From a virus (Duplodnaviria > Caudoviricetes): 57,176 nucleotides of DNA. The first letter of the stretch is position 1, and every line of letters starts with the position of its first letter. Shown one piece after another: positions 111 to 56,995 of this stretch. The translations under genes and the position numbers were made by a program. The stretch spans positions 1 to 57,176 of IMG/VR virus record IMGVR_UViG_3300043446_003411. One strand, written 5' to 3'. A model generated the notes under the pieces. That model was not told the origin of the DNA and did no database searches. It saw only the letters and a list, made by a program, of their open reading frames with translations.

Positions 111-117
111 GCCAGAG

Positions 118-126: not shown

Positions 127-136
127 TGATTGAGCG

Positions 137-298: not shown

Positions 299-299
299 G

Positions 300-392: not shown

Positions 393-398
393 TGGATG

Positions 399-407
399 AT
401 CCTAGCA
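399..407 (-). promoter_or_regulatory. extended -10 promoter TGcTAGGAT, leaderless
   Basis: 6 nt before ATG at 392. Confidence 0.6.
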
Positions 408-416
408 GATAGGAAA

Positions 417-767
417 CTACTCTTCAACATAGCCTACGGGTTGCAGGCATACGGTGTATTTCGAGTTATCGTGACGAAAGCGGAAGGACCATTTCATATC
501 CTCAACCGCGTTCTTGAGACTTTTCAAAGCCCACTGATCTTCCATCTTGGCTGCATCAGAGATCTCATCGGTGTCAATAGGGTCTTCTTCATTGATTTCA
601 CCCTTATTGAAGTCCTTCAGCCAGTTCTGTAGGGCCTTGTAAGCGTCTTTCCAGCAAGGGTAGGCTCCGACTATGTCTCGGCCATGCTCGCCCTCTATGA
701 CGACCTCCCAAGGCTTCTCCTTGGCGATGTGGAGCATCTCTTGTCTTGTTGCGAGTCTTTTAGCCAT
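417..767 (-). CDS. hypothetical protein with KRLxTxxExL N-terminus
   Basis: ORF packed against its neighbours; N-terminus resembles that of 962..4927. Confidence 0.7.
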   Translation of the reverse strand: MAKRLATRQEMLHIAKEKPWEVVIEGEHGRDIVGAYPCWKDAYKALQNWLKDFNKGEINEEDPIDTDEISDAAKMEDQWALKSLKNAVEDMKWSFRFRHDNSKYTVCLQPVGYVEE

Positions 768-960
768 TTAAGTATATTGCGGATAGCACTTCGCCACAGG
801 TCATTGCTTCGTCTAGACCTGTGGACCAGATGTTGAGAGTGATTGGTTTTGTTTCCCGCTTATCAACGAGATACATAGAGACAACGTATTCATTCCAGTC
901 AGATCCCTGTTCTTTCGGATCCTCCCAGTCCCATGAGATGTCGCTGTCCTCCCAGAACAC
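760..960 (-). CDS. hypothetical protein
   Basis: Acidic ORF, tightly packed. Confidence 0.6.
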   Translation of the reverse strand: MFWEDSDISWDWEDPKEQGSDWNEYVVSMYLVDKRETKPITLNIWSTGLDEAMTCGEVLSAIYLNG

Positions 961-961
961 A

Positions 962-3900: not shown

Positions 3901-4927
3901 GGGCGGGGTTTGGAAGTTCCAAACGCTTTCTATAAATCCCATTCGGATCCATCGACTCCAATTGCTGTTGCAACTGCTGCAATTGAGAATTGTATTGTTC
4001 TGGCAGCGACTTAAGTCTTTCGATCTCTTGCTGATACTGAGCAAGATCCTCCTGCACAGCGCTTAGTTTCGCGCCGGAACTTTGAAGTTGTTCAATCTTA
4101 GATTGTGCGCTCTTAGCATCATGGAGCACCAATTCTCTAATGCTCTTTGCGGCGTTTTTATTGACAACGGAGAGAGCCTTAAGTTCTGTTCTTAAGTCAT
4201 CAACTCGACTGAGTGGATCATGTCCCCAGTCTTGACGATCAAAATAATTCTTGAAGACCTGCTCGACTTGTATCGCTCTCTGCTCGCCGGTCTGCTGGAT
4301 GTCCTTTCGACGCTCCTTCTCAGCCTGTGCGATTTCTTTATCGGAAAGCCCGCCCTTTTCTGCTGGAGAAAGAAATGCATCCTGAGGTTCAATTTGTTCT
4401 GATTTCGGAATAAGACCAGATCTTGAGACATCAACATACGACGGATCAAGTTGATAGAGATATTGATACAAACCGGGAAGAACGGACCTTCTTATCTTGT
4501 CTCTCTCTGAAAGCAGTTGTCGGCGCTCTGCCATCATCTTTTGGACAGACTCTGAGCCCGAAAGTTCTGAGCCGCCGAGTTCTTTGTAAGCCCCTGCCAA
4601 AGCATCGAGACGAAGATTAATCTTCATCACTCTCGATCTGAATTCGTCAATCTTGGTAAGGATTTGCTCTTTGTTCTGAGGATCGAGAGGGGCGGGGATG
4701 TCTCCCTGATCAAACATCTTAACGGCCTGCTCAGGCTCTTGGAAAGAAGGAGATTGTCGATCTCTAAGAAAGCCCGGGTGCTTTGGGTATTGAGGCTTTA
4801 TGCCTTTTCTCTTTGCTTGATCCCGTTTCTCCTGTTGCGCTGGAGATAACGGAGTCGGCTTAATCGGTTCCGGCGGTGCGTCAAAAATAGAAAGAATTTC
4901 GCGGGATGTGGAGAGTCTTTTAGGCAT
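962..4927 (-). CDS. 1321-aa Q/E-rich coiled-coil protein, possibly an internal virion protein
   Basis: Long ORF with heptad-rich segments; no recognised catalytic motif. Confidence 0.8.
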   Translation of the reverse strand: MPKRLSTSREILSIFDAPPEPIKPTPLSPAQQEKRDQAKRKGIKPQYPKHPGFLRDRQSPSFQEPEQAVKMFDQGDIPAPLDPQNKEQILTKIDEFRSRVMKINLRLDALAGAYKELGGSELSGSESVQKMMAERRQLLSERDKIRRSVLPGLYQYLYQLDPSYVDVSRSGLIPKSEQIEPQDAFLSPAEKGGLSDKEIAQAEKERRKDIQQTGEQRAIQVEQVFKNYFDRQDWGHDPLSRVDDLRTELKALSVVNKNAAKSIRELVLHDAKSAQSKIEQLQSSGAKLSAVQEDLAQYQQEIERLKSLPEQYNSQLQQLQQQLESMDPNGIYRKRLELPNPAPNKETYEILSGIRELMGQIKSLESKIQSLDVDKQIQYLQKMVDSMQADPAGWDSRQEEMNKPRVVEPKPKTGPSAQEIERENERIRGIQGELRLQQRPKWEMTPDGRYELKPSREQMQKDFDNAFGVLRSAEDVLQNINDARLKTQQENPGDKQRFRTLSQEDLFSLIEKRQLRDKLALEYQQNPSDELSNRLAEASKNYDYFYRLNRIADDQRKALEAWYDSQEPDIQNISIPSLRSFIKKTPSIREKINAPFVQTLSHFSEQEETLWWEKNSAKGSYYQNALNRVNSQIAADAISVVRFFTENPKMWNESYAQQAMTTDYAVGAMMELVKQMSSSAKSSPQEFLPGIGDHPEEMSAEKAFKEDAEPAEEAPSEEERAAEDVAKEDVDPVDAVSQPGTYRQQVNDALKAVMQSDEEDVDILTSLGEAAVEPKPKIKGKKKQFPAGEPQLPGSLDDYRRYGPDANPPSFKTIKNQIMTIAADNPDLIIEETGKPISEYVSTDEAGRPFLNQSGRALAEQMHLQEIEDYITYLMYTPMSDQDPVAENIQKGLLYEAYRLDPRLIARGGDRVTQSVVDQMINHVFLNLSQANREREVYSLFNQWDRLSQTADDKGEMMRDAIGRWLRGQITNTRQRLNRELWGRNAWTPEYKKWFDDFNTFKTNVKEGLGIVKGKTKKDIPTEVWQQYFQEIGKYQREFPEPQEKYNKGFSDLAGVLQDMTQEEGSALTDYLEGYAPAKSRPEMAGEDVAEEVPSESVDIDERLQFLDQFAQDNPKFEKLIRFVYEHPDLFSSVGGLTDYNKQRSEWVKKRKEFLADPKVQQHIEKGQQEWESKNPAPEDPAEMDEWQAKREQIGKSLVKGVRIRWESENPAPKKIPGESSIEVKDWNRLVDTWNEELDPSAGDSAVGRKYLEKLFTDLKKAIADARTPAAPKTDVVTPAQKTKNQQQQMQDVLKNVGITPQSKIDVLRRLAKLAKLRKNQ

Positions 4928-4968
4928 GATATCTATTACTTATGTTAACGAAAAAGAGTTGTTTGAGG

Positions 4969-5565
4969 TTAGTTGTCCCCACGACCCTTTTCTGTCATAT
5001 CGTTCATATTGCCCTTCTGTGTTCCGGCAATGAGATGACGAGGGTTACAACACTTGGGATTGTCGCAATCGTGAAGGATATATCTCCCCTTTTTCAGAGG
5101 ACCTTTCATCAGTTCAAGAGCGATTCTATGAGCATCACAGATTCTGTCGCCGATGCGAAATTGTCCGTAACCGAGAGAGCCGCGAGTACTGTTCTTCCAT
5201 GGCCAGCACTGATTCGCGCTCTTCACATTGATCTTGCTCCAGAATCGGGCTAGATCCTTGTCGGAGAGTTTGACGCCGCATGCGGTCCTGTGTTTTGTGA
5301 CCGCCTTCGCAGCAGCAGGAATTCCTTCCTCCTCCTTGCTTCTCTTGTACCCTAGATCGGTATAAGGATCGTCTCTCTCAAATGCTTTTTCCGTCTGCTC
5401 TCTTTTTTCATAGAGGGGACGGTACTTGTCTGCTATCTCGGCATGCAGACGCTGGGCCTCTTCATTACTGATTTCGCCACTCAGAGAACGACGAAGAACA
5501 TCAATGCGTTCTTTAATCTCTCGATCTTTTAAAAGATCTTTTCCCCATTGATATTCTTCAAGCAT
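4969..5565 (-). CDS. HNH endonuclease (HNH_3-type) fused to an N-terminal helical domain
   Basis: FWSK..CWPW..GYG.F..AHR..ILHDCDNPKCCNPRHL..GT..N..DM..KGR. Confidence 0.85.
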   Translation of the reverse strand: MLEEYQWGKDLLKDREIKERIDVLRRSLSGEISNEEAQRLHAEIADKYRPLYEKREQTEKAFERDDPYTDLGYKRSKEEEGIPAAAKAVTKHRTACGVKLSDKDLARFWSKINVKSANQCWPWKNSTRGSLGYGQFRIGDRICDAHRIALELMKGPLKKGRYILHDCDNPKCCNPRHLIAGTQKGNMNDMTEKGRGDN

Positions 5566-5566
5566 A

Positions 5567-5806
5567 CTATTTGGCTAGATACGAGATGCCCCAAACCATA
5601 CCGGCAAGAATGCCGCCGCTTAGGACACTGCTCATGATGACTCTCTGCATGTGTCTTCCGCGCTGCTCTCCCTGCCAACGGGCTTCTTCCATTTCAAGGT
5701 CGGTAACTCGACCGTTGGTTCGTTTAACTTCCCTGTGAACCTCTTTAAGAGTTTCTTCAAGTTGATCGAGTCTATTTAAAATGACTGCAATATCCGATTC
5801 GCTCAT
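5567..5806 (-). CDS. coiled-coil protein with C-terminal TM helix
   Basis: MSESDIAVILNRLDQLEE... ending in a hydrophobic helix. Confidence 0.65.
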   Translation of the reverse strand: MSESDIAVILNRLDQLEETLKEVHREVKRTNGRVTDLEMEEARWQGEQRGRHMQRVIMSSVLSGGILAGMVWGISYLAK

Positions 5807-5819
5807 TTTGAACCCAATC

Positions 5820-5891
5820 CTACTTACCGCAACCGCAATTTTGACATTTGCAACCACGAAACGAAAACCACGCTTTAACTTTTTTCAGCAT
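5820..5891 (-). CDS. putative 23-aa Cys-rich peptide
   Basis: MLKKVKAWFSFRGCKCQNCGCGK; GGAG 7 nt upstream; fills the intergenic gap. Confidence 0.4.
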   Translation of the reverse strand: MLKKVKAWFSFRGCKCQNCGCGK

Positions 5892-6048
5892 TAACTATCT
5901 CCATGTACAGTTCACGAGTTGTTTTTACGCGGGAGGTCAGGACTTCGCCCTCTGTCGCAGAAACGATAATTGTCCTCGGCTTCTGTGTCTGCTCGGGTGC
6001 TGGAGTCTCTTGGGTTGGTTCTTCGACTTTTGCCTTTTTCTTAGCCAT
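5875..6048 (-). CDS. hypothetical protein (MAKKKAKVEEPTQETPAPE...)
   Basis: 57-aa ORF read by eye; overlaps the upstream gene end; GGAG SD. Confidence 0.6.
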   Translation of the reverse strand: MAKKKAKVEEPTQETPAPEQTQKPRTIIVSATEGEVLTSRVKTTRELYMEIVNAEKS

Positions 6049-6199
6049 TTTTTCTCCAAAAGATCAGCGCAGTAAAAACAACGCAGGTTATAACCATTAC
6101 AAGTGCGCTTCTGTTTATAATCAAGTCCTCTTTGTGCGGAATAGGGAATCCCGTCTCCTTGTTTCGAGACACGGACTTCTTGAATAGTGGATTAATCAT
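6041..6199 (-). CDS. small membrane protein
   Basis: C-terminal hydrophobic stretch. Confidence 0.55.
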   Translation of the reverse strand: MINPLFKKSVSRNKETGFPIPHKEDLIINRSALVMVITCVVFTALIFWRKNG

Positions 6200-6398
6200 T
6201 TTCAGGCTCCCTGTTGAAGTTGCGCACAATCGCATTGAACTTTATCCTGTCCTTATAGAAGTCGTCAAGACATCTTTGAGAACAGAAATTATATTCGTGA
6301 TTGTCGTCTTCCGACGGTTGTAACGAATAGAAGGATATGACGGAGGTGCTTGCCGCAGCAATAACCTTCTTGCATTTGAAGCATTTTAAAGATTTCAC
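6192..6398 (-). CDS. small zinc-binding protein (TRASH/YHS-like)
   Basis: CxxC...FCSxxC. Confidence 0.6.
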   Translation of the reverse strand: MKSLKCFKCKKVIAAASTSVISFYSLQPSEDDNHEYNFCSQRCLDDFYKDRIKFNAIVRNFNREPEND

Positions 6399-6833
6399 CT
6401 ACAGGTTAAATCGGTGCTTCCTCATCTTTTCATATAATTCATCTGTCACATAATCAGTTCCTATCTTCATGTGAAAATAAGTAGGTATCGTGTTCAGTGC
6501 ATGAAAGGAACCAAAAAGAATTGTTGAACAGAGTTGATTCGCAACATTGTACTTGTTCAACATATTGTCTTCTGCCAGAATCTCAAGAAGATATTCGTCA
6601 TTTGGATCAAAATCAAAGATTATATTCACCTCATGTGTTCCCGGACTTATCGCCTGCATGACTTCTTCTTCCTCGCTTTCTGGTTCAGGCCGTGGAACGA
6701 TGACGGCCATTCCCGGTCCTATCGGAAGATCATGCTGAACCGCTAAAAAGTCAACGATGTCAGCGATTTGCCCTGAAGTGAACCGGGGATCGACTACGCC
6801 GAATGTCGAATGGATTGAGAAGATCGCAAACAC
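6399..6833 (-). CDS. hypothetical protein
   Basis: Packed ORF. Confidence 0.65.
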   Translation of the reverse strand: MFAIFSIHSTFGVVDPRFTSGQIADIVDFLAVQHDLPIGPGMAVIVPRPEPESEEEEVMQAISPGTHEVNIIFDFDPNDEYLLEILAEDNMLNKYNVANQLCSTILFGSFHALNTIPTYFHMKIGTDYVTDELYEKMRKHRFNL

Positions 6834-7249
6834 TAAACCTCGCCGCAGAACAGCAGGAGGGATATGTAGTGAGCGAGGAGAAGGGGGAGATTCAGTTCCT
6901 CAGATTTCAAATTGATTGTCGGGGTGTTGACGACGAAAGAACCCTCTTCTGTCTCGCTTCCCAAGATCAAGTGTCCATTTGAACGAATGAAGTTTCTATG
7001 TCTTTTCAAACTAATCGGTGAACGATCCTCGACACAAAAAGAATAGAGACCACGATCAGAGAACTGCAGCAGATCCTCATCCTGCTTTAAATAAGCAAAA
7101 ATCGCAATCTGCTGATCTATTTCGAAACTGAAGAATGGTGTTTCAATTCTGAATACGGCAACGTCATCTCCGGGCTCATCAGTAAGATGCTCAACGCTCG
7201 ATCCGGCGATACTTGACTCAATGAGAGCCTTGGCCTCATCTACAGTCAT
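6833..7249 (-). CDS. hypothetical protein (possibly DUF1828-like)
   Basis: IETPF...QFSDRG pattern; family call is weak. Confidence 0.6.
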   Translation of the reverse strand: MTVDEAKALIESSIAGSSVEHLTDEPGDDVAVFRIETPFFSFEIDQQIAIFAYLKQDEDLLQFSDRGLYSFCVEDRSPISLKRHRNFIRSNGHLILGSETEEGSFVVNTPTINLKSEELNLPLLLAHYISLLLFCGEV

Positions 7250-7389
7250 TCTTTGCCCCAGAATCTATCTTTGTAGTCCTCTAAGGCGTCTTCGAGTTCA
7301 TCATTATCGCTCACCCAACTATCGTAAGACTTTGGGTCGCGAATGAGTTGTTCGACCACGTTTTCGTAGTCATCGCGAGTATCTTTCAT
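7246..7389 (-). CDS. small acidic protein (MKDTRDDYENVVEQLIRDPKSY...)
   Basis: 47 aa; ATGA overlap with the next gene; leaderless start. Confidence 0.6.
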   Translation of the reverse strand: MKDTRDDYENVVEQLIRDPKSYDSWVSDNDELEDALEDYKDRFWGKE

Positions 7390-7395
7390 GTCCTT

Positions 7396-7424
7396 AGAAT
7401 AAACAAAGGACGGCGAGTTGTCAA
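7396..7424 (-). promoter_or_regulatory. sigma70-type promoter TTGACA-17-TATTCT, leaderless
   Basis: Consensus -35, 17-nt spacer, ATG 6 nt after the -10. Confidence 0.75.
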
Positions 7425-9409
7425 ATTAAATCAATATCTTTGAGCGGGATCCAGAGATGAATATGACTATGGTTCGGAGAGTATTCTTCCAAATTATATT
7501 CAATCATAACCATTCTATCTCTAGGGTCAACAGATAGGATCACAACTTCGTCCCCAACGGGTATTGCGCCGTAGGTTCCTCTGTCTTCTTCCTCGCAACC
7601 CATTTCGCCAGTGACTGGGTTGTATCCAAGATCATCCGGGCTGTAGATAAAATTGCCGTCAGGTCGAATCTTCAATGGTAGTGCGTCCGGATGTGGAACC
7701 AGACCACCACGCTGCTCGCCCCACAACTCTTTTCTAACAAAGCCCCTAGGGGACCGACCACCCGTAAGTTCCTGCTGGATATAAACGACAATGTCTTTGA
7801 TCGGAATATCAGAGGACAGTATCGTTACCGAGGAAGACTTTTTGTTGTCGTCCTCGAAAAGATCAGAGAGACTATCGAATAAACTGAAACTGCTCTCTTG
7901 TGGCTGCTCAATTGCAGGTTGCTCCACCTCGGGCTCTGGCTGAACACTGTCGGCAGGAATTGGCACAGGCTGTTTTATCGGTGTGGTAGGCATTTGCATT
8001 TGTGACCATGCGCCTCCGGGACCAGCCGCTTTGATTCTCTCTTTAATCATCTTCAGGATAACCTTAGGATCCTTGTTCTTAAGGTATCTTTGAATGAAGT
8101 CTCGTCCGCGCTTCTTGTCGTTGACCTCCCACCAATGAAAGTCTCTAAAAAGGTCTTGGGCTTTTGTCTTTGAGAAAAGATCAGAGTCCGGATTCGCGTC
8201 GTAAGCCTCTTGTATGGCGTTTTTTCTTACACGAATCTCTTTCTTTAACTGATCAATTTGTTGTCTTTTCTCTGTGTACTCTCCCCTATCTGCCCAGAAA
8301 TACTCAGGAACTGGTTCGCCCTGCTCGCGCAGCCTTCTGACATCTTCCGGGTCGGCGTCGTAGAACCCTAAGGGGAGTTCCTCTAACTGTCCCTGTTCGT
8401 ATAGATTCATTTGCTCAGGGGTAAGCCTCGGTCCAAATCTTGTGGGCCTGTTGGCCAGAAGTTCTCTCGCCTCTTTGTCAAGACCTATCATCTGGGCAAC
8501 ACGCGCAACAATTTCTTTCTTATAAATTTCTGTTTCCTCTGTGTCGTAAACGTTTCTGGTGTTCACGAGCATTTGAAGTTCTTGCGTTAAGTTAGAGATG
8601 GCGTTTTGATCAGACGGATCCGTTTCGTATATTTCGTTTAGGATCCTTGTAATCTCGTCAACGACCTGATCCGCCGACACAAGGTCAAACTGATCTTGCA
8701 GCGCCTTGTTCAAAACCGAGATGTCTATACCGTCCAGCATCTCCAGTTCTCTTGGGGAGATTCTTCTCCTTTCAGGCTCCTGCTTCTCGTCAACAATCTC
8801 CTTCATTGCGTCCCAGTCAGTTCCTTCTAATCGGTCTTGCTCCAACAGTTCTGGGAAGAACCTCTGCATGACGGAGGGATCGACATCTTCATACTCAACT
8901 GCTCTTGTCATCGATGTCCACCAAAGAGCAAGGATGTGCGAACAGACCCTACCTTCGAACTTCTTATTGACTTCTTTTCTGCGACCGCGCATGTCGACTT
9001 TGTAGATCGGCCTTCGGTCCCAAGCGTATCGCCCCCAAGCGCAAGCGCAAGACCAAGATCTGATCGCTCGGCTCTTTGGGTGCGGAATAAGAATCTTGGC
9101 TTCATAGGATCCGTGGTCGCCAACGATCTTTCCGTACACCTCAATGATCTCATGGGGGAGATTAAGATCGTAAGGTCTTTTGTAAATAAGGCTTACTCTG
9201 TTGGAGGTGACGATAACCTTTGCTTTGCGCTCAACATCGATCCAAGCAGATTGATGCTGCATGCGTCCGAGTTTCTCAATATCGAAACAACCCTGTTCTA
9301 AGTACTGATACGAAACAGGATCGGAGACATAGAGGGATTCCTCATCAGTGAGTTGAGATGGGAGTTTGTCCCAAGCGGCTGCCTTTTGCTTTGTACTAAG
9401 CATTAGCAA
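7421..9409 (-). CDS. SWIM zinc-finger protein of the head region
   Basis: WSCACAW...VCSH (CxC-xn-CxH). Confidence 0.75.
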   Translation of the reverse strand: MLMLSTKQKAAAWDKLPSQLTDEESLYVSDPVSYQYLEQGCFDIEKLGRMQHQSAWIDVERKAKVIVTSNRVSLIYKRPYDLNLPHEIIEVYGKIVGDHGSYEAKILIPHPKSRAIRSWSCACAWGRYAWDRRPIYKVDMRGRRKEVNKKFEGRVCSHILALWWTSMTRAVEYEDVDPSVMQRFFPELLEQDRLEGTDWDAMKEIVDEKQEPERRRISPRELEMLDGIDISVLNKALQDQFDLVSADQVVDEITRILNEIYETDPSDQNAISNLTQELQMLVNTRNVYDTEETEIYKKEIVARVAQMIGLDKEARELLANRPTRFGPRLTPEQMNLYEQGQLEELPLGFYDADPEDVRRLREQGEPVPEYFWADRGEYTEKRQQIDQLKKEIRVRKNAIQEAYDANPDSDLFSKTKAQDLFRDFHWWEVNDKKRGRDFIQRYLKNKDPKVILKMIKERIKAAGPGGAWSQMQMPTTPIKQPVPIPADSVQPEPEVEQPAIEQPQESSFSLFDSLSDLFEDDNKKSSSVTILSSDIPIKDIVVYIQQELTGGRSPRGFVRKELWGEQRGGLVPHPDALPLKIRPDGNFIYSPDDLGYNPVTGEMGCEEEDRGTYGAIPVGDEVVILSVDPRDRMVMIEYNLEEYSPNHSHIHLWIPLKDIDLI

Positions 9410-10484
9410 CCCTTTCCTTGATCTTCTTGTCGTCTTGCTGGTGTATCACATACACATGTTTGACTTCATGTTCCGGATACATATCAATCCACAAATTGAT
9501 TAGATGCCTAATAGTATAAGGCAGTGAAGACTGATTGACAATCAGCAAATCCCCATCCGGAGTGTAGTAGCCCTCAGCCACGCCAAACGGATTGGTCTCA
9601 TCGATCTCCACCCTCTCGTCTCCCGGCTCTCCGACATAGAGTCGATCTCTCTCAACATGGAAAGAGAATGGAATAGGTCCTGCCGGCTGCGCAGCACCAA
9701 CGACCTGTCCACCGGGACCACCACCGGGTCTTGATGCCTCGTTGTCAGGATAAAAGTATTCGTCGTTATCTCTGATTTCGTACTCAGGACCTGTTGGCTC
9801 TTTCTTGGGATGATCGTGAGTCATATGCAGAAGGAACTCGCTATAAGAATCAAACACCTCACTGCATTCGGTACAACCATATGTGTCTTCCGACAGTCTA
9901 GGAGTGATGACTCTAAGATCACCTTGACCGGGCAGTTTGCCTCTGTCGTTGTCTTGAATCTGAATGTCTGTTAGCAGGCTCTTATCTGTGTTCTTCCAAG
10001 GATATTTAAAATGGTCATCGCCGATGCCGGGATCTGCGGCCATCTTGCGGATACCGACCGGCAAGGGAATACCATTCTTGTCCTGAACGGAAACGAGATG
10101 CAGCGGGTGGTTCCACTCCTTGAAATTGGTTGAGGGATCTTTCGCCCATCTGCGGAAAATACCGTGCAGAAAATCGAGATCTACATTGGCCTTCTCCACC
10201 ACAAATGATGTCGTCCAGCGATGCGTGATCTCTACGGAGCCCGTTGCAAACGGTCCGTGATGGTCATCGACAATACCTAGTGCCCGATAGGCATCATCAA
10301 GATTATCGGGACTGACAACAAGAATGGTCTTACCAGCAAGAACCCAGCGGAAAACTTGTTTGGTCGCGCCAGACATATCTGACATTTGCTGCCTGTCAAA
10401 CTGGAACTGCAACTCTTGCGGCTGCTGTGCTGGGTAGGCGTCGGTGCCCCATCCGAAGTCGGATTCTTTGCGAATGTCTTCCAT
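9396..10484 (-). CDS. hypothetical head-region protein with a C2H2 zinc finger
   Basis: CTECSEVFDSYSEFLLHMTHDH. Confidence 0.75.
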   Translation of the reverse strand: MEDIRKESDFGWGTDAYPAQQPQELQFQFDRQQMSDMSGATKQVFRWVLAGKTILVVSPDNLDDAYRALGIVDDHHGPFATGSVEITHRWTTSFVVEKANVDLDFLHGIFRRWAKDPSTNFKEWNHPLHLVSVQDKNGIPLPVGIRKMAADPGIGDDHFKYPWKNTDKSLLTDIQIQDNDRGKLPGQGDLRVITPRLSEDTYGCTECSEVFDSYSEFLLHMTHDHPKKEPTGPEYEIRDNDEYFYPDNEASRPGGGPGGQVVGAAQPAGPIPFSFHVERDRLYVGEPGDERVEIDETNPFGVAEGYYTPDGDLLIVNQSSLPYTIRHLINLWIDMYPEHEVKHVYVIHQQDDKKIKERVANA

Positions 10485-10518
10485 AACAAAAACGCGCTCT
10501 ATACTAATTAGAGCGCGT
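10485..10518 (-). terminator. intrinsic terminator-like hairpin
   Basis: ACGCGCTCT/AGAGCGCGT 9-bp stem followed by TTTTTGTT on the minus strand. Confidence 0.6.
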
Positions 10519-10539
10519 ACACCACACTATAATAGAATG

Positions 10540-10665
10540 CAGCGGGCCAGAGGACTGGCAAGAGCGGTGGGATCCGATTATGCCAGTGCTCTGGCCCTTT
10601 TGTGGTTTCGAAGACTTCCTGAGAAGTAGACTTCGGATCACCTCCACGCTTGTACCGCTCTCGCC
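10540..10665 (+). ncRNA. unassigned structured RNA element (strand uncertain)
   Basis: 16-bp interrupted hairpin whose loop has two downstream complements; TATAAT at 10528-10533; contains GGATCACCTCC. Confidence 0.55.
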
Positions 10666-10667
10666 TA

Positions 10668-10868
10668 TTATGGCTCGTCCGAAAGCGATAACAAGTATAA
10701 AGCCTTATCGGGATTGCCGCATTTGATTGCCGCCTCGGCAATCCTCAGATCAACGTCTTGCCGAATGGAGATCTCTAAAGCCATTGCTGGCTCCCACCCC
10801 GCAGCAATCAAAACGCTCTTGCGCCAAGCGATAACGGCTTCATCCTCTTTTGAGACTGTCATCAACAA
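10668..10868 (-). CDS. hypothetical protein
   Basis: Packed ORF. Confidence 0.6.
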   Translation of the reverse strand: MLMTVSKEDEAVIAWRKSVLIAAGWEPAMALEISIRQDVDLRIAEAAIKCGNPDKALYLLSLSDEP

Positions 10869-11051
10869 TTAAGGTGAAGCCTTAGCCTTACTTAAAGGGC
10901 TACGGCTAGGAGAACCTCCTGCACCATTAACGCTTGACAAACCAAAAGAAAACACACGGGTCCATTTTCCGCTGTTATCTGGCGGAACGTCGGCCTTGTC
11001 TGTCTCTACGACAGTGCCGTTTTCGTGTTGCCACTCATAGACTACTGCCAT
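10869..11051 (-). CDS. hypothetical protein (MAVVYEWQHENG...)
   Basis: Start trimmed to the ATG preceded by GGAG. Confidence 0.6.
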   Translation of the reverse strand: MAVVYEWQHENGTVVETDKADVPPDNSGKWTRVFSFGLSSVNGAGGSPSRSPLSKAKASP

Positions 11052-11334
11052 CGATTTCTCCGCGCTCGCCACCATGAGCGTACTGTCGAAGGTAGCGGTT
11101 GATGATTTTGTAGGAATTTCTGAGATGACGCATTGCCTTTCCGTCATACTCGTCTTTCTCTAGTTCTGATAGGGCCTTGAGAATGTCCGTCTGCAGGTCG
11201 TATAGCGCACGGCTCTCTGGAGCCTGAGCGGGCTTCTTCTTGGGCTTCTTAATACCGCCCTTGGGCTGCTGCTCGTATTTGAAAACGTCGCCGCCGAAGG
11301 GGCTAAGTGGATCTGTAAAGTCCTGCCTAGGCAT
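11035..11334 (-). CDS. hypothetical protein (MPRQDFTDP...)
   Basis: Start trimmed to remove a long overlap. Confidence 0.6.
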   Translation of the reverse strand: MPRQDFTDPLSPFGGDVFKYEQQPKGGIKKPKKKPAQAPESRALYDLQTDILKALSELEKDEYDGKAMRHLRNSYKIINRYLRQYAHGGERGEIDGSSL

Positions 11335-11575
11335 CTTCTTCCTCTTCTTGGTCATCCTCTTGGTATGTCTCGTAGACATAGTCCTTGAGGAAGCCAGACA
11401 ATCTCTCATGAATTCTAGACAACTCATTAGTGAGTGGTCGATAATTAATTGTCTGCTGGAGGTTGTTATATGCCTCTGCCACATCCTCAGACTGATAGGC
11501 ACTCATCGTAAGATGGAGAACGGCGATAGTGTCCTCAAGGTCTTCAATCGGTATCTGAATCGACTTCTCTGTCAT
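11327..11575 (-). CDS. hypothetical protein
   Basis: Packed ORF with an acidic tail. Confidence 0.65.
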   Translation of the reverse strand: MTEKSIQIPIEDLEDTIAVLHLTMSAYQSEDVAEAYNNLQQTINYRPLTNELSRIHERLSGFLKDYVYETYQEDDQEEEEDA

Positions 11576-11918
11576 CTTCCATCCAATCTGGCTTTTCTGG
11601 TGTCATGAAGGACACCGCAATAATCTCGTCAGCAAGAAATGCTTTCTTGTTGAACGATCTGTCAGTGAAATAGATAAACTTTATATTCTTGTCGTCATTA
11701 ATCGCGTTCCACCAAGTCGAAGTGAAACTCATCAGTTCCTCAAGATCTTTAACCGGATCGTCCTTCTCGAAAAAGAAGACATGCTCCGTGAAGATCGGCT
11801 CGGGCTTATGACGAAGATGAACTATCATCTCTATCGGGATCTGATAGACCCCCTCTAGATCGAACAGGTCTTCTGACTCGAACATTCTTTCTTCTCCAAA
11901 GAAATCATAATCATGCAT
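11544..11918 (-). CDS. hypothetical protein
   Basis: Packed ORF. Confidence 0.65.
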   Translation of the reverse strand: MHDYDFFGEERMFESEDLFDLEGVYQIPIEMIVHLRHKPEPIFTEHVFFFEKDDPVKDLEELMSFTSTWWNAINDDKNIKFIYFTDRSFNKKAFLADEIIAVSFMTPEKPDWMEDDREVDSDTD

Positions 11919-12162
11919 CTTTTGCTTCCACTCCATTGAAATCAACTAGACGGAGTAGTCCGCCACAAACGCCACATACAAAAAGGTTTAGAGGTCTACC
12001 GTTGCGATTGACCTGACCATTGTCTTCAATGACCCAATCGATAGCGGAGACCGGGTGAGGACAACCTGTAACCGGGACAGCGCCGGCCTTTGCTCTGGCC
12101 GACTCACGGGCACGAATGATTTCCGCATCAGGCGAATTGAGATATTTGAGGGAATCAGTCAT
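11911..12162 (-). CDS. small zinc-ribbon protein
   Basis: CPH...CGVC. Confidence 0.6.
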   Translation of the reverse strand: MTDSLKYLNSPDAEIIRARESARAKAGAVPVTGCPHPVSAIDWVIEDNGQVNRNGRPLNLFVCGVCGGLLRLVDFNGVEAKDA

Positions 12163-12409
12163 CGTCAAACAGACTCGCTTGATAGAAGCCAAAAGAATTC
12201 TTGTCTTCGATAAGAGCGATATACCTATCGAGATACCAAGCGGCCTTCTTAAGGTCTTCTAGTTCCTTGCCCTTGCGCTTGGCGCGAGAGACATACTTCA
12301 CCACATTACCAAGGTGATAGGGAAGTTCCCAAGCCTCAATAACATCAATGGTCTCATGGACACCGAAGGCGTAATGAGGCGGATGATTCACCATATCCAG
12401 ATTGCTCAC
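12155..12409 (-). CDS. DUF3310 family protein
   Basis: DMVNHPPHY...ETIDVI...GNVVKYVSRA..KG..LEDLKKA.WYL. Confidence 0.9.
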   Translation of the reverse strand: MSNLDMVNHPPHYAFGVHETIDVIEAWELPYHLGNVVKYVSRAKRKGKELEDLKKAAWYLDRYIALIEDKNSFGFYQASLFDDD

Positions 12410-12633
12410 GACGACTGTCCTTTCAGTTCCGCATAGCCTTCCTCAAGATAGGTATCAATTTCTTTCTTGATGGCCTCACGACGCTCTGCAATGAACGAGG
12501 CGACCTTATCGTCCGGCTCATCGATCACCATCCACGTCTCCGTGCGGCTCTCAGAGATATCTGCGGACTCGTAGTTGCCAAGATTTGCCTTGACGCTGGC
12601 GCGATACGAGATAGCAACCTCACGCAGTTCCAT
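12406..12633 (-). CDS. hypothetical phage protein (NLGNYES motif)
   Basis: Packed ORF; motif common in small phage proteins. Confidence 0.7.
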   Translation of the reverse strand: MELREVAISYRASVKANLGNYESADISESRTETWMVIDEPDDKVASFIAERREAIKKEIDTYLEEGYAELKGQSS

Positions 12634-12812
12634 TACGCCTCGCCCCCTGAGACCTCACCAGAGGCCCATAGAAGGCGCGTACCGTCCTTCTCTTCGATCT
12701 CCTTGATCGCGCTCTGGATTGCGTTGCTGAGGGCATCCTGAGCGTTCTGAGACAGTGGTCCACCGTTCATGTTCCAAACAGTGAAGTGAGTGTAGGTATC
12801 GATAACGGTCAT
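12633..12812 (-). CDS. hypothetical protein (MTVIDTYTHFTVWN...)
   Basis: 59-aa ORF read by eye; ATGA and TAATG overlaps at its two ends. Confidence 0.65.
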   Translation of the reverse strand: MTVIDTYTHFTVWNMNGGPLSQNAQDALSNAIQSAIKEIEEKDGTRLLWASGEVSGGEA

Positions 12813-13819
12813 GCGTAAATCAACTCCTGATCGTAGACGTTGCCGTAGTGTTTTCCGCCGTAGATATATCCGTTGTGTACTGCGCGGACCAGTTCCACAT
12901 GGTAGTTATCGGTCTTTGTTGAGAAGTGGCCAACAGCGATACCCGGCTGCCAGTTCGTCTCACCGATCTTGTAGTCGGCATTACGCGAACAGAGACAGCC
13001 CTGCTCGTACCATGTGAGGTTGCGATAGCCGAACTTGGGATACTCCGCCATGCGATGAGTGTGTCCCATGATTCCCGAGATAAGCGTGTTCGTTAGGCGA
13101 GCCTTGGCGCTAGCGCCCGCTTCACCGCGAACAACGTGACCGTGCTCAAAAACAAACTCTGGGCGAATGCGATGACCACCACGGCCAAACAGCGTGATAT
13201 CGAGTTCGTTGAGACCTAGGAGAGTTTCCGGCTTAAGCGCTCTAAGGCTAGCCAGAGATCTTGCATTATTCTCGATATACGAAAGGATTCTCTCATCATG
13301 ATTGCCCAGATTCTCTCTAATCGTCGCATTGGGGAACATATCTCTTAGGCTGCGACGAAACTCGTAGCCCATATCAATTTCCTCTTGCAGATTGTCAAGG
13401 CGCTCAAGGCCCTGATTGAATCTTGAGAGTTGGAAGAAGTCATTGACATCTCCATTGATTACAACGACATGCGGCTGGATATCATTCATGAGTAGAAGTG
13501 TCGCCTCAAGTAGTTGCTTATTGTGATATGGGAAATGAATATCTGATATCGACACAACCGTCTCAAACAGTTCTGTCGTTGTCGGCTCAAGGAGCGGAGC
13601 GATTCCCTCGCCCCACTTCTCTGTGTCGGGAACGACAAAACCAGCACCGGGAATGTATCTCTGGTGCTTGTTCTTGATCTTCCGGTATTCGGCGACCCTA
13701 GAACGAAGACCGGAGATAGACCCGCCCCAACCGATCTCTTCTGCCAGTTCCGCCCACGAGGGATTTGGTTCTCCCTTGGGCTTGCGTTCTAGACAATATT
13801 CGAGGATTTCTCTATTCAT
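12809..13819 (-). CDS. calcineurin-like metallophosphoesterase with N-terminal HTH
   Basis: SDIHFP, GDVND, GNHD, EHGH and GHTH motifs. Confidence 0.9.
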   Translation of the reverse strand: MNREILEYCLERKPKGEPNPSWAELAEEIGWGGSISGLRSRVAEYRKIKNKHQRYIPGAGFVVPDTEKWGEGIAPLLEPTTTELFETVVSISDIHFPYHNKQLLEATLLLMNDIQPHVVVINGDVNDFFQLSRFNQGLERLDNLQEEIDMGYEFRRSLRDMFPNATIRENLGNHDERILSYIENNARSLASLRALKPETLLGLNELDITLFGRGGHRIRPEFVFEHGHVVRGEAGASAKARLTNTLISGIMGHTHRMAEYPKFGYRNLTWYEQGCLCSRNADYKIGETNWQPGIAVGHFSTKTDNYHVELVRAVHNGYIYGGKHYGNVYDQELIYA

Positions 13820-15923
13820 CTTCTTCCTGAATCAGTTTGATGGAACGAGGACGTTTGGCGATTGCCGCTTTCTTTATAGCAGATTCGCCGTCAGGCTGCA
13901 ATTCGTATTGGTCTTTTTTGGAACCCATACGATTATATTGTAGCCCGGGTCTTCGTTCATTACTGACTTCAGGAACTGGCCCCATCTCCGGAGAGACTGG
14001 ACCTGCTGGGGGAGGACCACCCATAGGAGTGGCACCGCCCATACCGCCGGGGCCGAGAAGATCTTCCGGCATTCCCGGCATGGGAATAGGACCGCCGCCG
14101 GGGGCAGGAGGCATTGATGGACCACCCACGCCTGCGCCCATTGCGCCCATCTCGCCGCCCATACCTCCCGGCATTCCCTGCATGGCAGAAATCTCTGCCT
14201 GAAGGTCTGGCGGGATTGGGAGGCCCTTGGCTTGAAGAATCTTGTAAGACTCCATCTTCGCCTCTTGCTGGGCAACGGTCTTCATGATCATTTCCTTCTC
14301 TAGACGATCTAGAGATTCCTTGAAATCGAAGTTGACGCCAACCATCATGTGCTTGTCGGCAATCGGCACACCCATCGACTTCAGGGTCTGTAGGAACTGG
14401 CGTTCGGTTGCCTCATCGCGCATATCGAGAACAGCCATTTCCATATCGGGAATTAGAAGTTTGTTTCTCTTTTCAATGCGGAAACCATCTTTCGCATCAG
14501 GATCAGGAATAACAACTTCTTCATATATCGGAATACGAGTTTGTCCCTTCTTCTCGTAATCATAATGCTCGTGAGCCTCAGCGATAACCATTGCTCTTTC
14601 GCGGTAATGCTGCTTGAGATAATCTTGATAGGTACGCAGCATTTGATTCATAAACTCTGCCTGAAGCGCCGAGGACGCATAGGGCTGCGAGTTAACCCCA
14701 CCGCCAAGAAGCGAGGGATTGATGCCGAACACCTGCATGAGGCGGCGCTCAATCTGATCGAAATCACTCCAGAGGTTGGGCATGTCCTCACGCCCAAAGA
14801 CGTTTGTCACCTCAAGACCGAAGTGGTGGACCAAGAGGCGGAAGTCAGACGAGAGCGCCATGTCCATGTCGTCACGGAACTGCTCAAGATCGTCTGGACC
14901 GGGAATCCACGGACCCTGCCCATCACCAAGATCGGTTGCACCGAGTTTGGCGAGAATAAGCGGCGAATAAAGGCGCTCTGCAATCGCATCCTGTGATGCG
15001 AGCAACTTCTCTTCGTGAATCAATGTGCGGAGCCCACGAAGAAGAATAGGAGTTCCGTGATCGTCCCACGGATTTGCCTTGAATGCGATCTGCTTCATGA
15101 GAACGTCTGAGACTGGGAAGGCCTCGCTGCGCTCCAAGAAGGGAATGAGGTCGCCGTAATGCTCAACAAGCATCTTGTATTCATCATTCGGCTGCTTCGT
15201 GCGAGCGAGACGCTTGAGGTACTCTGGCGGCACGATCTTCATTTGCTTAGAACCCAGAAGCGGATAGTTCTCGATAATCACATCTTCCGGGTTGATAAGT
15301 TCTTCGCGCTCCCAAGTCCCGAGATGCTCGTTAAACGAAGCAAGGGGGAAAGCCTCACCAATCGTCCAATACTCGCGGCCAAGAGAAACAAGGAAGTCAG
15401 GATAGTTAAGTTGATCTAGGAATACTTCTTCGTAAAACGATGTAAGTTGATCGTCTTTAGAATTAAGATACATTCCTGCAAGCGGAAAGCGTGTGAAGAT
15501 GTCAACAAGAATAGGCACAAGATAGTGCGTCATGTAGTAGAGACGCATCCACTTATGCAACTTGTGACGATGGCCTTCGTCGGCCATATTCCAAGGTAGA
15601 CCGGATAGATCCCAATACTCCATTGGGTCGTAGAAACGCGGAATTGCGGCATACGCATCTCCGCCTGAGCCGACCTTCCTCATTCTCGATGAGCGGACAG
15701 CGCGTGCAAGACGGCTGTTCTCTCGCATCATCTTCAGCGTGGCTTCATTGTCCCCACCGTCGATACGGGTCAAATCCTGCTGCAGGGAGTGCGATGAAGC
15801 CATTCCATACATCTCTTTGGCCGTGATTGCCGCTCTGAGCGGGTTCTTGGGAAGCGTTAGGCTTTGACTCTTCAGCCGGTGCAGTTCCTGATCTAGACCT
15901 GATGTACGGATTTTCTTGTCCAT
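13812..15923 (-). CDS. portal protein with P/G/M-rich tail
   Basis: Position downstream of terminase; size; LVHHFGLEV..FG..and FGINPSLLGG..Y motifs typical of portals. Confidence 0.75.
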   Translation of the reverse strand: MDKKIRTSGLDQELHRLKSQSLTLPKNPLRAAITAKEMYGMASSHSLQQDLTRIDGGDNEATLKMMRENSRLARAVRSSRMRKVGSGGDAYAAIPRFYDPMEYWDLSGLPWNMADEGHRHKLHKWMRLYYMTHYLVPILVDIFTRFPLAGMYLNSKDDQLTSFYEEVFLDQLNYPDFLVSLGREYWTIGEAFPLASFNEHLGTWEREELINPEDVIIENYPLLGSKQMKIVPPEYLKRLARTKQPNDEYKMLVEHYGDLIPFLERSEAFPVSDVLMKQIAFKANPWDDHGTPILLRGLRTLIHEEKLLASQDAIAERLYSPLILAKLGATDLGDGQGPWIPGPDDLEQFRDDMDMALSSDFRLLVHHFGLEVTNVFGREDMPNLWSDFDQIERRLMQVFGINPSLLGGGVNSQPYASSALQAEFMNQMLRTYQDYLKQHYRERAMVIAEAHEHYDYEKKGQTRIPIYEEVVIPDPDAKDGFRIEKRNKLLIPDMEMAVLDMRDEATERQFLQTLKSMGVPIADKHMMVGVNFDFKESLDRLEKEMIMKTVAQQEAKMESYKILQAKGLPIPPDLQAEISAMQGMPGGMGGEMGAMGAGVGGPSMPPAPGGGPIPMPGMPEDLLGPGGMGGATPMGGPPPAGPVSPEMGPVPEVSNERRPGLQYNRMGSKKDQYELQPDGESAIKKAAIAKRPRSIKLIQEEDE

Positions 15924-16152
15924 TTATTCTTTGACTCACGATCCAAGTTAGAAGGCTGGGTTTGATTATACCACGATCAGCCTCTAAATGATGATTGGGA
16001 CAGAGGGAAATGACGTTCCCGAGAACGTACTCCCCTCCGTCCCGACCGGGTTTTATCCTGTGCTGCTGGACCACTGTTGTGTATCCGCATATTTCGCAAC
16101 GCTTTGGTGATAGTGATTTCTTCTTGTTTCTTGAAGTGCCTCTTTGAGACAA
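15745..16152 (-). CDS. HNH endonuclease
   Basis: CEICG...HRI..GG.Y..GN...LCPNHH. Confidence 0.85.
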   Translation of the reverse strand: MSQRGTSRNKKKSLSPKRCEICGYTTVVQQHRIKPGRDGGEYVLGNVISLCPNHHLEADRGIIKPSLLTWIVSQRINGQENPYIRSRSGTAPAEESKPNASQEPAQSGNHGQRDVWNGFIALPAAGFDPYRRWGQ

Positions 16153-16158
16153 TTCCGT

Positions 16159-18195
16159 TTACTGCTTCGCTTGCTTCTTTAGGAAAGACTGGTAGATATT
16201 AGAAACCATTTTGTAGTTGACTGGATTCTTTGTTGTTGGGCTATTTCTTGTAGAAGGAGCAGTAACATCCTCTAGGGGTTGCGCCTCTTCTAACGGCATC
16301 TTCTTAATTCTATCTTCTTCTTTTTCGTCAATATTGAATCCGGGAGTATAGTAATCTGCCTTCGCCGATGACTCTTGTGCCATCAATCGATACAGTTCGG
16401 ACTGTAGTTGACTTTTCTCTTTTTCACTCAACGGAGCGCCGCCTCTACCGACGTTGCGCTCAAGAACACCCTTAATCATCTTGATCTGATCTGAGATGAC
16501 TCCGGGATGATCTGCTGTTTTTGTCTTTGCGAATCTGGCTGCATATTGACGGACATCTTCAATATTTGACGGGGCCAGACCAATCGCCTGCTCGAACGCC
16601 TGTGCGATTTGATCAACCGCGTTCGGACGATTCTCGGCGTACATCGCAAACAATGTATCGACCGCCTCTTGAGACGTTTCGAATCTGCCGGAGTTGGCGT
16701 ACTGACGATACACCTGAGCGATTTGGTCAGGGTCAACGTCGCCGACCTCGTAACTCATCTCAAGAAGGTCGGGGTCTGTCGTGTCCCATAGGGACTCCTT
16801 CACAGAAGAGATTGTGGTGTTCAAAAAGTCGTCACCAGCATCCTCTTCGTATAGGTCGCCGAGACTGGGCTCGTTATCATCTTCGCCTCTTTGAGGAGCG
16901 TTCGCCGCCTCTTCCTCTGCGGCTAGATCCATCATCTCGTCTTCGGAGATAACGTTTTGTGTCGGCATAGCGGACAATTCTTCTTCTGATGGTTCGTCCA
17001 TCTCAAGAAGTTGCTCGTAAAGATCTTTGTTGGCGGATGTCCATGACTTGTGGGCCCAGCCGGGATCAACGTGATTGACATAGAAATCAATACGATCCTT
17101 AGCCTCGTGCTGAGGCATACCAGCGGAAACGAGATTATCAACAGCCTCTGATGGCGTCATAAGTTCCGAAAGAGCATTGAAATCCATGCGCTCTGCAGCA
17201 GCCTTGGCCATTGCGGGCCTATATTGCTGATCGCGATAGTTCTTCCAATTCCTTCTGTCATCCCATACAGACGCTTGCCCATAGGGATTTTTAGAATGAA
17301 GACCGGAGGCATCCTGAACAGGACCTTCATATCTTCTTAGGCCACGGCTTTGGTACATGGGAGACATGCGCGAATAAGGGGCATCCATACCCTCCTGAAC
17401 TGACTCCCAACTATCTTCTTCCTCTGGGACCGATTCAACTGGGTCATCGGGAGCGGACCAAAGATCCTCCCAATCTGCTTCAGTATCATCAAGAGAGTCT
17501 GATGAGACCGCTGGGGGCTCAAGCATGCCCGGATCGATATCCAAGTCTTTCATTAACTCGGATTCGTCGTCCTCACTCCAGTCCGCCGCTTCCGCTAAAA
17601 AACTACTTGTGACCGGATCCGCCTGACCCTTGTTGGGGAACGTCTGGGTCTTAGGACCCTTCTGTTCGGGCCTCTGATCAGAAACATTGGTGCGCTCTAG
17701 ACCATCACCCTCCATAGGGATTGGGGAGTCCCAAGGCCATTCTTTGTCTGGGGGATTCTGACTATCGTCGGGGCTGAGTTCTGGAATATCCGGGTTGGTG
17801 TTCTTCATGTGATCACCAGCGGAATTCGGATTTAGCGCAACGGTCGGCTCGGTGTAGTAGCCGTCGGCGGGCATGGTCGGAAGTTTCTGCTTCTCGTCAG
17901 CCTCACCACCGGCCTCCGGCTTCGCCTCAGCAAGAATCTGCAACTGACCAATGACCAGTTTGGCAATGTGCTGCGGATCATCGTAGCCGTATTCTTCGCA
18001 TGTGTCGTTTGCGATCTTCACGATCTCTTCGGCCACTAGGGCAAGACGAGCGTTAAACTCTTTGTCGCCCTGAGAAGACTCGACAAACGAGCCGAAACGG
18101 CGCTCGGCACGATCAATAGCAACGGCAGCGGCATTTCTGAAAGGAAGGTTTTCCTCTCTGGCCTGCGCCTCTAGATAGTTGAACATATCGCTCAT
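16159..18195 (-). CDS. acidic head-morphogenesis/scaffold-like protein
   Basis: D/E/P-rich; lies between terminase and portal. Confidence 0.65.
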   Translation of the reverse strand: MSDMFNYLEAQAREENLPFRNAAAVAIDRAERRFGSFVESSQGDKEFNARLALVAEEIVKIANDTCEEYGYDDPQHIAKLVIGQLQILAEAKPEAGGEADEKQKLPTMPADGYYTEPTVALNPNSAGDHMKNTNPDIPELSPDDSQNPPDKEWPWDSPIPMEGDGLERTNVSDQRPEQKGPKTQTFPNKGQADPVTSSFLAEAADWSEDDESELMKDLDIDPGMLEPPAVSSDSLDDTEADWEDLWSAPDDPVESVPEEEDSWESVQEGMDAPYSRMSPMYQSRGLRRYEGPVQDASGLHSKNPYGQASVWDDRRNWKNYRDQQYRPAMAKAAAERMDFNALSELMTPSEAVDNLVSAGMPQHEAKDRIDFYVNHVDPGWAHKSWTSANKDLYEQLLEMDEPSEEELSAMPTQNVISEDEMMDLAAEEEAANAPQRGEDDNEPSLGDLYEEDAGDDFLNTTISSVKESLWDTTDPDLLEMSYEVGDVDPDQIAQVYRQYANSGRFETSQEAVDTLFAMYAENRPNAVDQIAQAFEQAIGLAPSNIEDVRQYAARFAKTKTADHPGVISDQIKMIKGVLERNVGRGGAPLSEKEKSQLQSELYRLMAQESSAKADYYTPGFNIDEKEEDRIKKMPLEEAQPLEDVTAPSTRNSPTTKNPVNYKMVSNIYQSFLKKQAKQ

Positions 18196-19583: not shown

Positions 19584-19631
19584 GATAAAATGGTCTATAC
19601 ATTAAGATTAGCGAAGGTGCACATATAAGTA

Positions 19632-38809: not shown

Positions 38810-38810
38810 T

Positions 38811-41499: not shown

Positions 41500-41582
<83 letters not shown>

Positions 41583-54721: not shown

Positions 54722-56995
<2,274 letters not shown>

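Follow-up and report, generated by a model that had tools for sequence, protein, structure and literature searches.

A candidate pseudoknotted RNA element with an orphan Shine-Dalgarno-like motif and a terminator in large freshwater phages

A 183-nucleotide (nt) non-coding spacer separates two minus-strand genes in the virus record IMGVR_UViG_3300043446_003411 (Duplodnaviria; Caudoviricetes). The window, meaning the whole stretch of DNA analysed, corresponds to the entire 57,176-base record (CheckV completeness 39%), and is a piece of a freshwater phage genome of roughly 150 kb. The spacer extends from the stop codon of a 66-amino-acid (aa) open reading frame (ORF) to the ATG of a 362-aa ORF, and all the ORFs surrounding it lie on the minus strand in the ORF map. 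It is best explained as encoding a non-coding RNA module of the gene strand, predicted to be co-transcribed with the flanking genes. The module comprises a 5' strand (S1) and two hairpins, the first bulged (P1) and the second long (P2); the loop of the latter (L2) pairs back to S1. A motif resembling a long Shine-Dalgarno (SD) sequence is found between S1 and P1, and an intrinsic terminator abuts the ATG. By its sequence the element is a candidate new RNA family, with five members, of a small clade of large freshwater phages.

Protein-guided scans yielded five related loci in which the upstream region is covered: L001, L011, L015, L012 and L013. A further contig, L016, shows no difference from L013 in the 420 nt compared. 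Protein identity to the window is about 64% in L001, 59% in L011, 65% in L015 (over the part covered), 50% in L012 and 49% in L013, and the related records are rated 6–52% complete by CheckV. The element is present at the same position in four of the five loci (L001, L011, L015 and L012), which make up the five members together with the window. In L013/L016 the gap from stop codon to ATG measures just 23 nt (L013:2978-3000), and the structured part and the terminator hairpin are both absent. These contigs keep the 362-aa gene without the module, which is therefore dispensable.

The features of the window are listed below in the order of transcription; percentages refer to the cells of the five-sequence alignment in which the predicted pair is formed.

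10668..10868, minus strand: upstream 66-aa ORF (ORF map), stop codon at 10668-10670
10485..10667, minus strand: whole non-coding element, the 183-nt spacer from the 66-aa ORF stop to the 362-aa ORF ATG
10654..10662, minus strand: S1, 5' strand of the predicted pseudoknot, GAGAGCGGU; pairs with 10560-10568 and begins 5–6 nt past the upstream stop
10635..10645, minus strand: SD-like 11-mer GGAGGUGAUCC, between S1 and P1, no start codon at initiation spacing
10604..10642, minus strand: bulged hairpin P1, outer helix 10631-10635 with 10609-10613, UCU bulge 10628-10630
10623-10627 with 10614-10618, minus strand: P1 inner helix, 96.7% of cells paired, 3 of 6 pairs changed on both sides
10640-10642 with 10604-10606, minus strand: P1 extension, weak, 3 base pairs (bp), 80% of cells paired
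10544..10597, minus strand: hairpin P2, 16–17 bp, arms 10581-10597 and 10544-10560, 20-nt loop L2 at 10561-10580
10561..10568, minus strand: 3' strand of the predicted pseudoknot in L2, ACCGCUCU, adjoining the 3' arm of P2; helix with 86% of cells paired
10529..10540, minus strand: unpaired spacer GCAUUCUAUUAU between P2 and terminator, identical in the window, L001 and L011, similar in L015
10485..10518, minus strand: intrinsic terminator, 10-bp stem (6 GC) with 7-nt loop (10492-10518), then UUUUGUU (10485-10491)
9396..10484, minus strand: downstream 362-aa ORF (ORF map) with a CxxC...HxxxxH motif

Fold, strand and conservation of the element

A 191-nt stretch of the site folds at -75.9 kcal/mol as minus strand (z-score -4.5) and at -75.6 kcal/mol as plus strand (z-score -6.0), values equalled by 0 of 200 dinucleotide shuffles in either case. 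Hairpins P1 and P2 recur when each of the five sequences is folded separately. The structure, made of the P1 extension, the outer and inner helices of P1, P2 and the S1:L2 pairing, was written on a MAFFT alignment of the five sequences. Standard pairs are found in 91.7% of 192 cells, versus 84.7 +/- 1.2% in shuffles, and 10 of 39 pairs are changed on both sides, versus 3.1 +/- 1.4 in shuffles, 0 of 500 of which reach 10; related sequences may beat shuffles without any structure. When the pairing partners were slid by 1–3 columns as a control, 36–48% of the cells were paired and 0–2 pairs were changed on both sides. P2 is paired in 96.3% of cells over 16 pairs, six of which changed on both sides, and the outer helix of P1 in 87.5%.

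An earlier sequence-only reading of the window had described the site as an undescribed, structured non-coding RNA with pseudoknot-type pairing. The description holds in these respects, given the covariation seen by pair counting in the five sequences and the outcome of a comparison with Rfam 15, in which none of 4227 families reaches its gathering score. The best match to the window is VrrA (RF01456; 33.7 bits, E = 0.0018, gathering score 50), and no match at E <= 1 was obtained in L001, L011, L012 and L015. What is shared with VrrA-type small RNAs (sRNAs) is the hairpin-spacer-terminator shape; the likeness is one of shape only, because the four homologous loci give no match.

The same reading had recognized the long hairpin, in which GGGCCAGAG (10544-52) pairs with CTCTGGCCC (10589-97) and ACTGGCA with TGCCAGT, and these strings are found where it placed them. 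The 16-bp hairpin is kept in the relatives, but the TTTT run that directly follows it on the plus strand occurs in the window only (1/5). Two complements to the hairpin loop had been reported as well. The one formed by AGAGCGGT (10561-68) and ACCGCTCT (10654-61) is exact in the window and has a counterpart in all five members. The other, GATCCGA (10571-77) with TCGGATC (10633-39), is strong in the window (-20.5 kcal/mol, 0/300 shuffles) but not elsewhere: the other four members give energies that 69 to 142 of 300 shuffles reach.

The S1:L2 pairing is made by AGAGCGGU and ACCGCUCU in the window and in L001. In L011 it reads UGAAGAA-CGGU with ACCG-UUCUUCA, which includes one G-C to A-U change, and in L015 GAAGAGCGGU with ACUGUUCUUC, two G-U pairs included; the L015 slice used has the first bases of S1 cut off. 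In the divergent L012 the pairing is rebuilt in different letters (UGGAAGA with UCUUCCA). The window duplex measures -17.0 kcal/mol, and 8 of 300 shuffled loops do as well; duplex energies in the five members are -17.0, -20.3, -22.9, -12.4 and -10.9 kcal/mol, matched by 8, 1, 0, 44 and 5 of 300 shuffled loops, respectively. The complement is thus present in 5/5 members and kept through sequence change, as expected for an H-type pseudoknot, the prediction being drawn from five sequences. Other pairings fared differently. A closing helix between S1 and the U-tract, put forward by RNAalifold, does not stand out from shuffles, 29 to 262 of 300 doing as well, and a swap between S1 and a terminator arm (AGAGCG/CGCUCU) can form in no members but the window and L001.

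The sequence-only reading had placed the RNA on the plus strand, antisense to the genes. In the helices, G-U cells number 14 and A-C cells 2. A G-U pair corresponds to an A-C mismatch on the opposite strand, and the folded RNA is therefore that of the gene (minus) strand. A strong terminator is found on the minus strand only, and the plus-strand T-run is not conserved. Altogether, the asymmetry and the terminator place the predicted RNA on the minus strand. A covariance model of the element scores the members at 113–145 bits on the gene strand, and at 22–24 bits on the other, where it finds nothing more than the palindromic P2 hairpin; as evidence for the strand this difference is circular, the gene strand having served to build the model. 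An antisense RNA running from the TATAAT at 10528 to the long hairpin and its TTTT run, with the 16S-tail sequence as an anti-SD mimic, is accordingly very improbable. The three signals are all in the window, a -10-like NATAAT is kept on the plus strand in L001 and L011, and the plus strand folds well too, as said. Yet the TATAAT string is not accompanied by any promoter flagged on that strand, the T-run is confined to one member of five, the 14 G-U cells would all be mismatches against 2 in the reverse case, and the model recovers P2 alone there.

Coding potential was evaluated on both strands. The 77-aa frame 10508..10741, which the sequence-only reading had named as the possible real gene, and the 47-aa frame 10504..10647 were rejected as candidates, as the conserved blocks shift frame between homologues: the distances from GGTGATC to the P2 arm measure 47, 48, 48, 46 and 54 nt in the five members. 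On neither strand does any reading frame stay open and conserved throughout the five members. Because the frames are not conserved, the two small proteins and the type I toxin-antitoxin pair also suggested by that reading are rejected; open frames do exist in the window, and a coding role of this kind is hardly credible.

The element is more conserved than the genes around it. In the four closer members, DNA identity is 70–81% in the element, 58–74% in the 66-aa gene and 61–68% in the 362-aa gene. Strain-level contigs from four freshwater runs of four studies carry one substitution in the 183 nt of the element (at 10525, in a variable spacer) and nine in 285 nt of downstream coding DNA; five substitutions occur in the 333 nt upstream, in the one strain-level contig that spans all of it, and the difference between element and flanks is small in absolute numbers. 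Selection acts on the core of the element, namely both hairpins, the S1:L2 pairing and the 11-mer. Within the window, the unpaired spacer at 10529..10540 has four matches with up to two mismatches, versus 4.67 expected, and the terminator loop is not repeated elsewhere. Each being unique in the window, neither is a repeated phage promoter or operator.

Each of the three viral records with the element gives a single match to the covariance model, and the record of L013 gives none. Further members were sought in several ways. An exact 24-mer search gave no matches, and a 17-mer search the L001 contig only. A search for the P2-arm pattern returned nine stretches, eight of which were unrelated on inspection. 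Scans of viral, metagenome and genome collections with the 362-aa alignment, and of the viral collection with the 66-aa alignment, gave no member beyond the same 4–5 contigs. A generic pattern scan yielded at least 119 stretches, and one of the 80 loci examined matched the model, this being the known L012 contig. The element has no match in GenBank phages. The DNA runs that contain the phage are labelled freshwater, the search of sequencing runs gave no RNA run containing it, and a near-identical strain-level contig of 80,030 nt (run X3) crosses the site.

The orphan Shine-Dalgarno-like motif and the terminator

On the plus strand, the string GGATCACCTCC at 10635-45 had been recognized as the conserved 3' tail of 16S rRNA. 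The identification holds: part of the universal 16S reverse primer 1525r (PMC3768708) is complementary to the 11-mer, and the 16S gene strand therefore carries the plus-strand string. One exact copy is present in the window, about 0.024 being expected from base composition; with up to one mismatch the count is 1 versus 1.11 expected. The minus-strand variants are GGAGGUGAUCC in the window and L012, GGGGGUGAUCC in L001 and L015, and GGGGGUGAUCU in L011. All five members fit the consensus GGRGGTGATCY and are complementary to the 16S 3' tail over 10–11 nt; the change from A to G at the third base would still pair by wobble.

The sequence-only reading had pointed out that this maximal SD has no start codon at proper spacing on the minus strand, and indeed no ATG, GTG or TTG follows the 11-mer at initiation spacing in any of the five sequences. 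The start codon of the 362-aa gene lies about 150 nt downstream. Short SD cores are in use by the phage, occurring at 21 of 65 crudely called gene starts, versus a 12.5% background (p = 2.6e-5), and no other SD-like site across the window is longer than 7 nt. In the literature, searched non-exhaustively, the 11-mer was met in 16S-primer contexts only, and no paper on such a phage RNA was found. As the folded strand bears the SD-like complement and not the 16S tail, the reading as an anti-SD sRNA fails. Two of the three functions that had been proposed, this one and the toxin-antitoxin pair, are wrong, and so is the strand.

Upstream, the stop of the 66-aa ORF lies 0–6 nt before S1 in the window, L001 and L012, overlaps S1 in L011, and falls after S1, directly before the SD-like motif, in L015. 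Judging from the usual footprint size, a ribosome terminating on this ORF would cover S1. A promoter-like sequence, TTGTTA-16-CATAAT, is found at 10694..10667, within the end of the 66-aa ORF, and was flagged in the window and L012 only (2/5).

The terminator, overlooked in the sequence-only reading, ranks first of 28 terminator-like sites in positions 1-20000 of the window, and its U-tract runs gapless into the ATG at 10484. The hairpin measures -16.0 kcal/mol in the window; energies in the five members are -16.0, -17.3, -15.2, -7.9 and -7.7 kcal/mol. An intrinsic terminator was flagged on the gene strand in four of them (window, L001, L011 and L012), the tail in L015 being weaker and unflagged. 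Stem changes include G-C to A-U and C-G to U-G, and the loop is conserved in four members; L012 features a different G+C hairpin followed by eight U. The ATG at 10484 is the real start, because an alignment of 29 homologues of the 362-aa protein begins at its Met. The gene has no SD sequence of its own and is preceded by the U-rich tract only, which is found also in L013.

In L015, a 39-aa ORF with its own AAGGAA SD sequence is inserted between P2 and the terminator hairpin (L015:598-717). In this member, 190 nt, ORF included, separate the structured domain from the terminator; the two parts are therefore separable.

Possible roles of the module

The reading that we favour, with a probability of about 35%, is that of a cis-acting intercistronic module which combines a terminator with a stabiliser of the stabilising Shine-Dalgarno (STAB-SD) type. 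The terminator would halt part of the transcripts arriving from the upstream gene block. A 30S subunit would dock at the orphan SD sequence, as at a STAB-SD element, and the docked subunit, together with the pseudoknot locking the 5' strand, would shield the RNA downstream from 5'-end-dependent decay. The outcome would be a stable terminated RNA of about 150–180 nt plus a stabilised read-through mRNA, and the module would in this way set the expression level of the 362-aa gene block. The L015 ORF, which carries its own SD, fits a module protecting whatever is downstream.

The STAB-SD of Bacillus thuringiensis cry3A precedes the start codon by about 129 nt and takes no part in translation initiation; it pairs with the 3' end of 16S rRNA and blocks RNase J1 via the bound 30S subunit (PMC4113751). 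It is the nearest functional analogue: both motifs are SD-like, 16S-complementary, non-initiating and far upstream of the gene (about 129 nt there, about 150 here). A STAB-SD is defined by four features: a 16S-complementary SD-like motif in untranslated RNA, the lack of initiation, a position close to the 5' end of the primary or processed transcript, and a bound 30S subunit that blocks a 5'-to-3' exonuclease and so prolongs mRNA half-life. The first two are found in the sequence, the lack of initiation being predicted from it. In contrast to cry3A, the phage motif resides in a conserved pseudoknotted scaffold, has a longer complementarity (10–11 nt), and is separated from the gene by an intrinsic terminator. 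The polypurine 5' stabiliser of SP82, reportedly of phage origin, is a second near analogue.

Several points weigh against this reading. The terminator lies between the supposed stabiliser and the gene to be stabilised, an arrangement not described for the cry3A leader. L013 and L016 carry the 362-aa gene, yet neither the module nor the terminator hairpin, and this joint loss is more specifically predicted by a free sRNA or by antitermination. The third base of the 11-mer is G, not A, in three of five members, and the 3' part of the motif is partly paired within the weak P1 extension. The SD likeness could be incidental to a protein- or RNA polymerase-binding motif, and the 11-mer had been chosen in the sequence-only reading out of very many windows. 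Finally, covariation was measured in five sequences, the same from which the structure was read.

Among the alternatives, a trans-acting phage sRNA of about 175 nt, initiated at a weak promoter within the last part of the 66-aa ORF, ending at the terminator and acting as a 30S decoy or sponge or by pairing with host mRNAs, appears fairly unlikely. Such an RNA would have a strong intrinsic terminator at the 3' end, an unpaired A/U-rich stretch before it, and a hairpin-spacer-terminator shape recalling that of VrrA; transcription from TTGTTA-16-CATAAT would start at S1, a similar site is found in L012, and module and terminator are lost or gained as one unit, both being absent in L013/L016. Against it, the promoter-like site is limited to two members and overlaps coding sequence, P2 and the terminator are separated by an ORF in L015, no better-than-chance complement of the conserved spacer occurs in the window, and the VrrA match stays below threshold and does not extend to the four homologous loci. 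Nor is there room for a promoter between the terminator and the 362-aa gene, and read-through would therefore be needed under this explanation too. Control of read-through in cis, by a pseudoknot that binds RNA polymerase, a host factor or a phage protein, or by an attenuator controlled by a ligand or protein, is likewise doubtful, though it accounts for a strong terminator at the very start of a gene block and for the joint occurrence of domain and terminator. The domain is directly upstream of the strongest terminator in 20 kb, within a long array of genes on the same strand, and with that terminator directly before the ATG, the downstream genes, a block of at least 9 kb, need read-through. 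Domain and terminator hairpin occur together in 5/5 members and are both gone in L013/L016; the ORF between them in L015 is tolerated, as a processive mechanism expects; contacts could be made through the unpaired motif, which is invariant, and the conserved UCU bulge. It is weakened by the results on alternative pairing, as no such pairing of domain and terminator is conserved, the AGAGCG/CGCUCU swap being confined to the window and L001 and the S1:U-tract helix being no better than shuffles. It also leaves the 16S complementarity of the invariant motif unexplained, and no candidate antiterminator protein was identified.

Like riboswitch and attenuator leaders, the element has a conserved covarying domain followed by a terminator just before the gene start. 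Unlike them, it features no conserved antiterminator pairing and no Rfam riboswitch match, and has a 39-aa ORF inserted in L015; in particular, a conserved, mutually exclusive pairing of domain and terminator was not found in the five members. The RNAs of phage processive antitermination (HK022 put, lambda nut) are cis-acting RNA structures in a phage operon with a downstream terminator to be passed. The position upstream of a terminator is all that fits here; size and pseudoknot differ. In the T4 gene 32 leader pseudoknot and in exonuclease-resistant viral pseudoknots, the 5' part of the leader is engaged in a pseudoknot and an unstructured U/A-rich start region lies downstream. The phage element resembles them in its predicted 5'-strand pseudoknot; no protein is known to autoregulate through it. 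A conventional terminator region inside the operon, with extra hairpins that do no more than protect the upstream mRNA at its 3' end and an SD likeness due to coincidence, is unlikely. Terminators with upstream hairpins are common, the 11-mer was selected post hoc and the module is dispensable in L013/L016; yet the 11-mer is invariant in 5/5 members except for A/G at the third base and C/U at the last, the paired regions covary, the pseudoknot is conserved, the element is conserved above its coding flanks, and 3' protection would need the terminator hairpin alone. A pseudoknot scaffold presenting a maximal SD to capture host 30S subunits, as a decoy or as a standby platform, is quite unlikely. 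The decoy would shift translation away from SD-led host messages during infection, and the standby platform would hand ribosomes to the SD-less start codon 150 nt downstream.

In about 180 nt, the element joins three parts in compact form: the pseudoknot, the orphan maximal SD and a terminator set against a start codon. Should the orphan SD of the favoured stabiliser-terminator module dock 30S subunits, the range of STAB-SD stabilisation would widen from Gram-positive chromosomal genes to include phages, with a structured scaffold as an addition. If the scaffold captured subunits, it would be a phage RNA acting on the ribosome itself and not on a message; if instead the element controlled read-through, it would mark the switch from the replication gene block to the next in a new phage group. 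To our knowledge, hardly any work has addressed the RNAs of large uncultured freshwater phages.

Neighbouring genes and other features of the window

At least 30 members, all metagenomic, make up the family of the 362-aa protein, in which the motif residues C204, C207, H220 and H225 are invariant. The protein has no match in PHROGs and nothing at threshold in Pfam, matches to C2H2 zinc fingers being sub-threshold only. Its AlphaFold model (mean predicted local distance difference test score, pLDDT, 67.8) has no PDB match at E <= 0.001, and all its Atlas scores are below 0.9. A 662-aa ORF (7421-9409, minus strand) shares 14 nt with the end of the 362-aa gene; its PHROGs matches are of unknown function only, and a CxC...CxH pattern is visible by eye near residues 120-150.

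The gene content of the window includes DNA polymerase III alpha, primase, a class II ribonucleotide reductase and an SNF2 helicase; a gene for ribosomal protein S21 was sought in the window and none was found. Eight tRNA genes are clustered at 38739-45115, and an additional copy of a 23-mer resembling the 3' half of a tRNA (repeat family D6) is located right after tRNA-Lys, at 45093-45115. A 508-aa ORF (52489-54015, minus strand) matches the Pfam tryptophan halogenase family over its full length (E = 2e-95); looked at as a clue to the host, this halogenase-like gene gave no close bacterial relative in a pattern scan. Long runs of repeats with a 9-nt period (GGN CCN GTN type, plus strand) are found inside minus-strand ORFs, among them a 755-aa ORF (54722..56989), at 46369-46467 and 54765-56918. 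By appearance they are candidate collagen-like Gly-X-Y repeats.

A second strongly structured spacer is found at 15924-16158 (minus strand), upstream of a 703-aa ORF. Its minimum free energy is -75.7 kcal/mol (z-score -4.7, 100 mononucleotide shuffles), and it features a hairpin of about 21 bp without a U-tract, with an extended -10-like sequence, TGGTATAAT, about 35 nt downstream.

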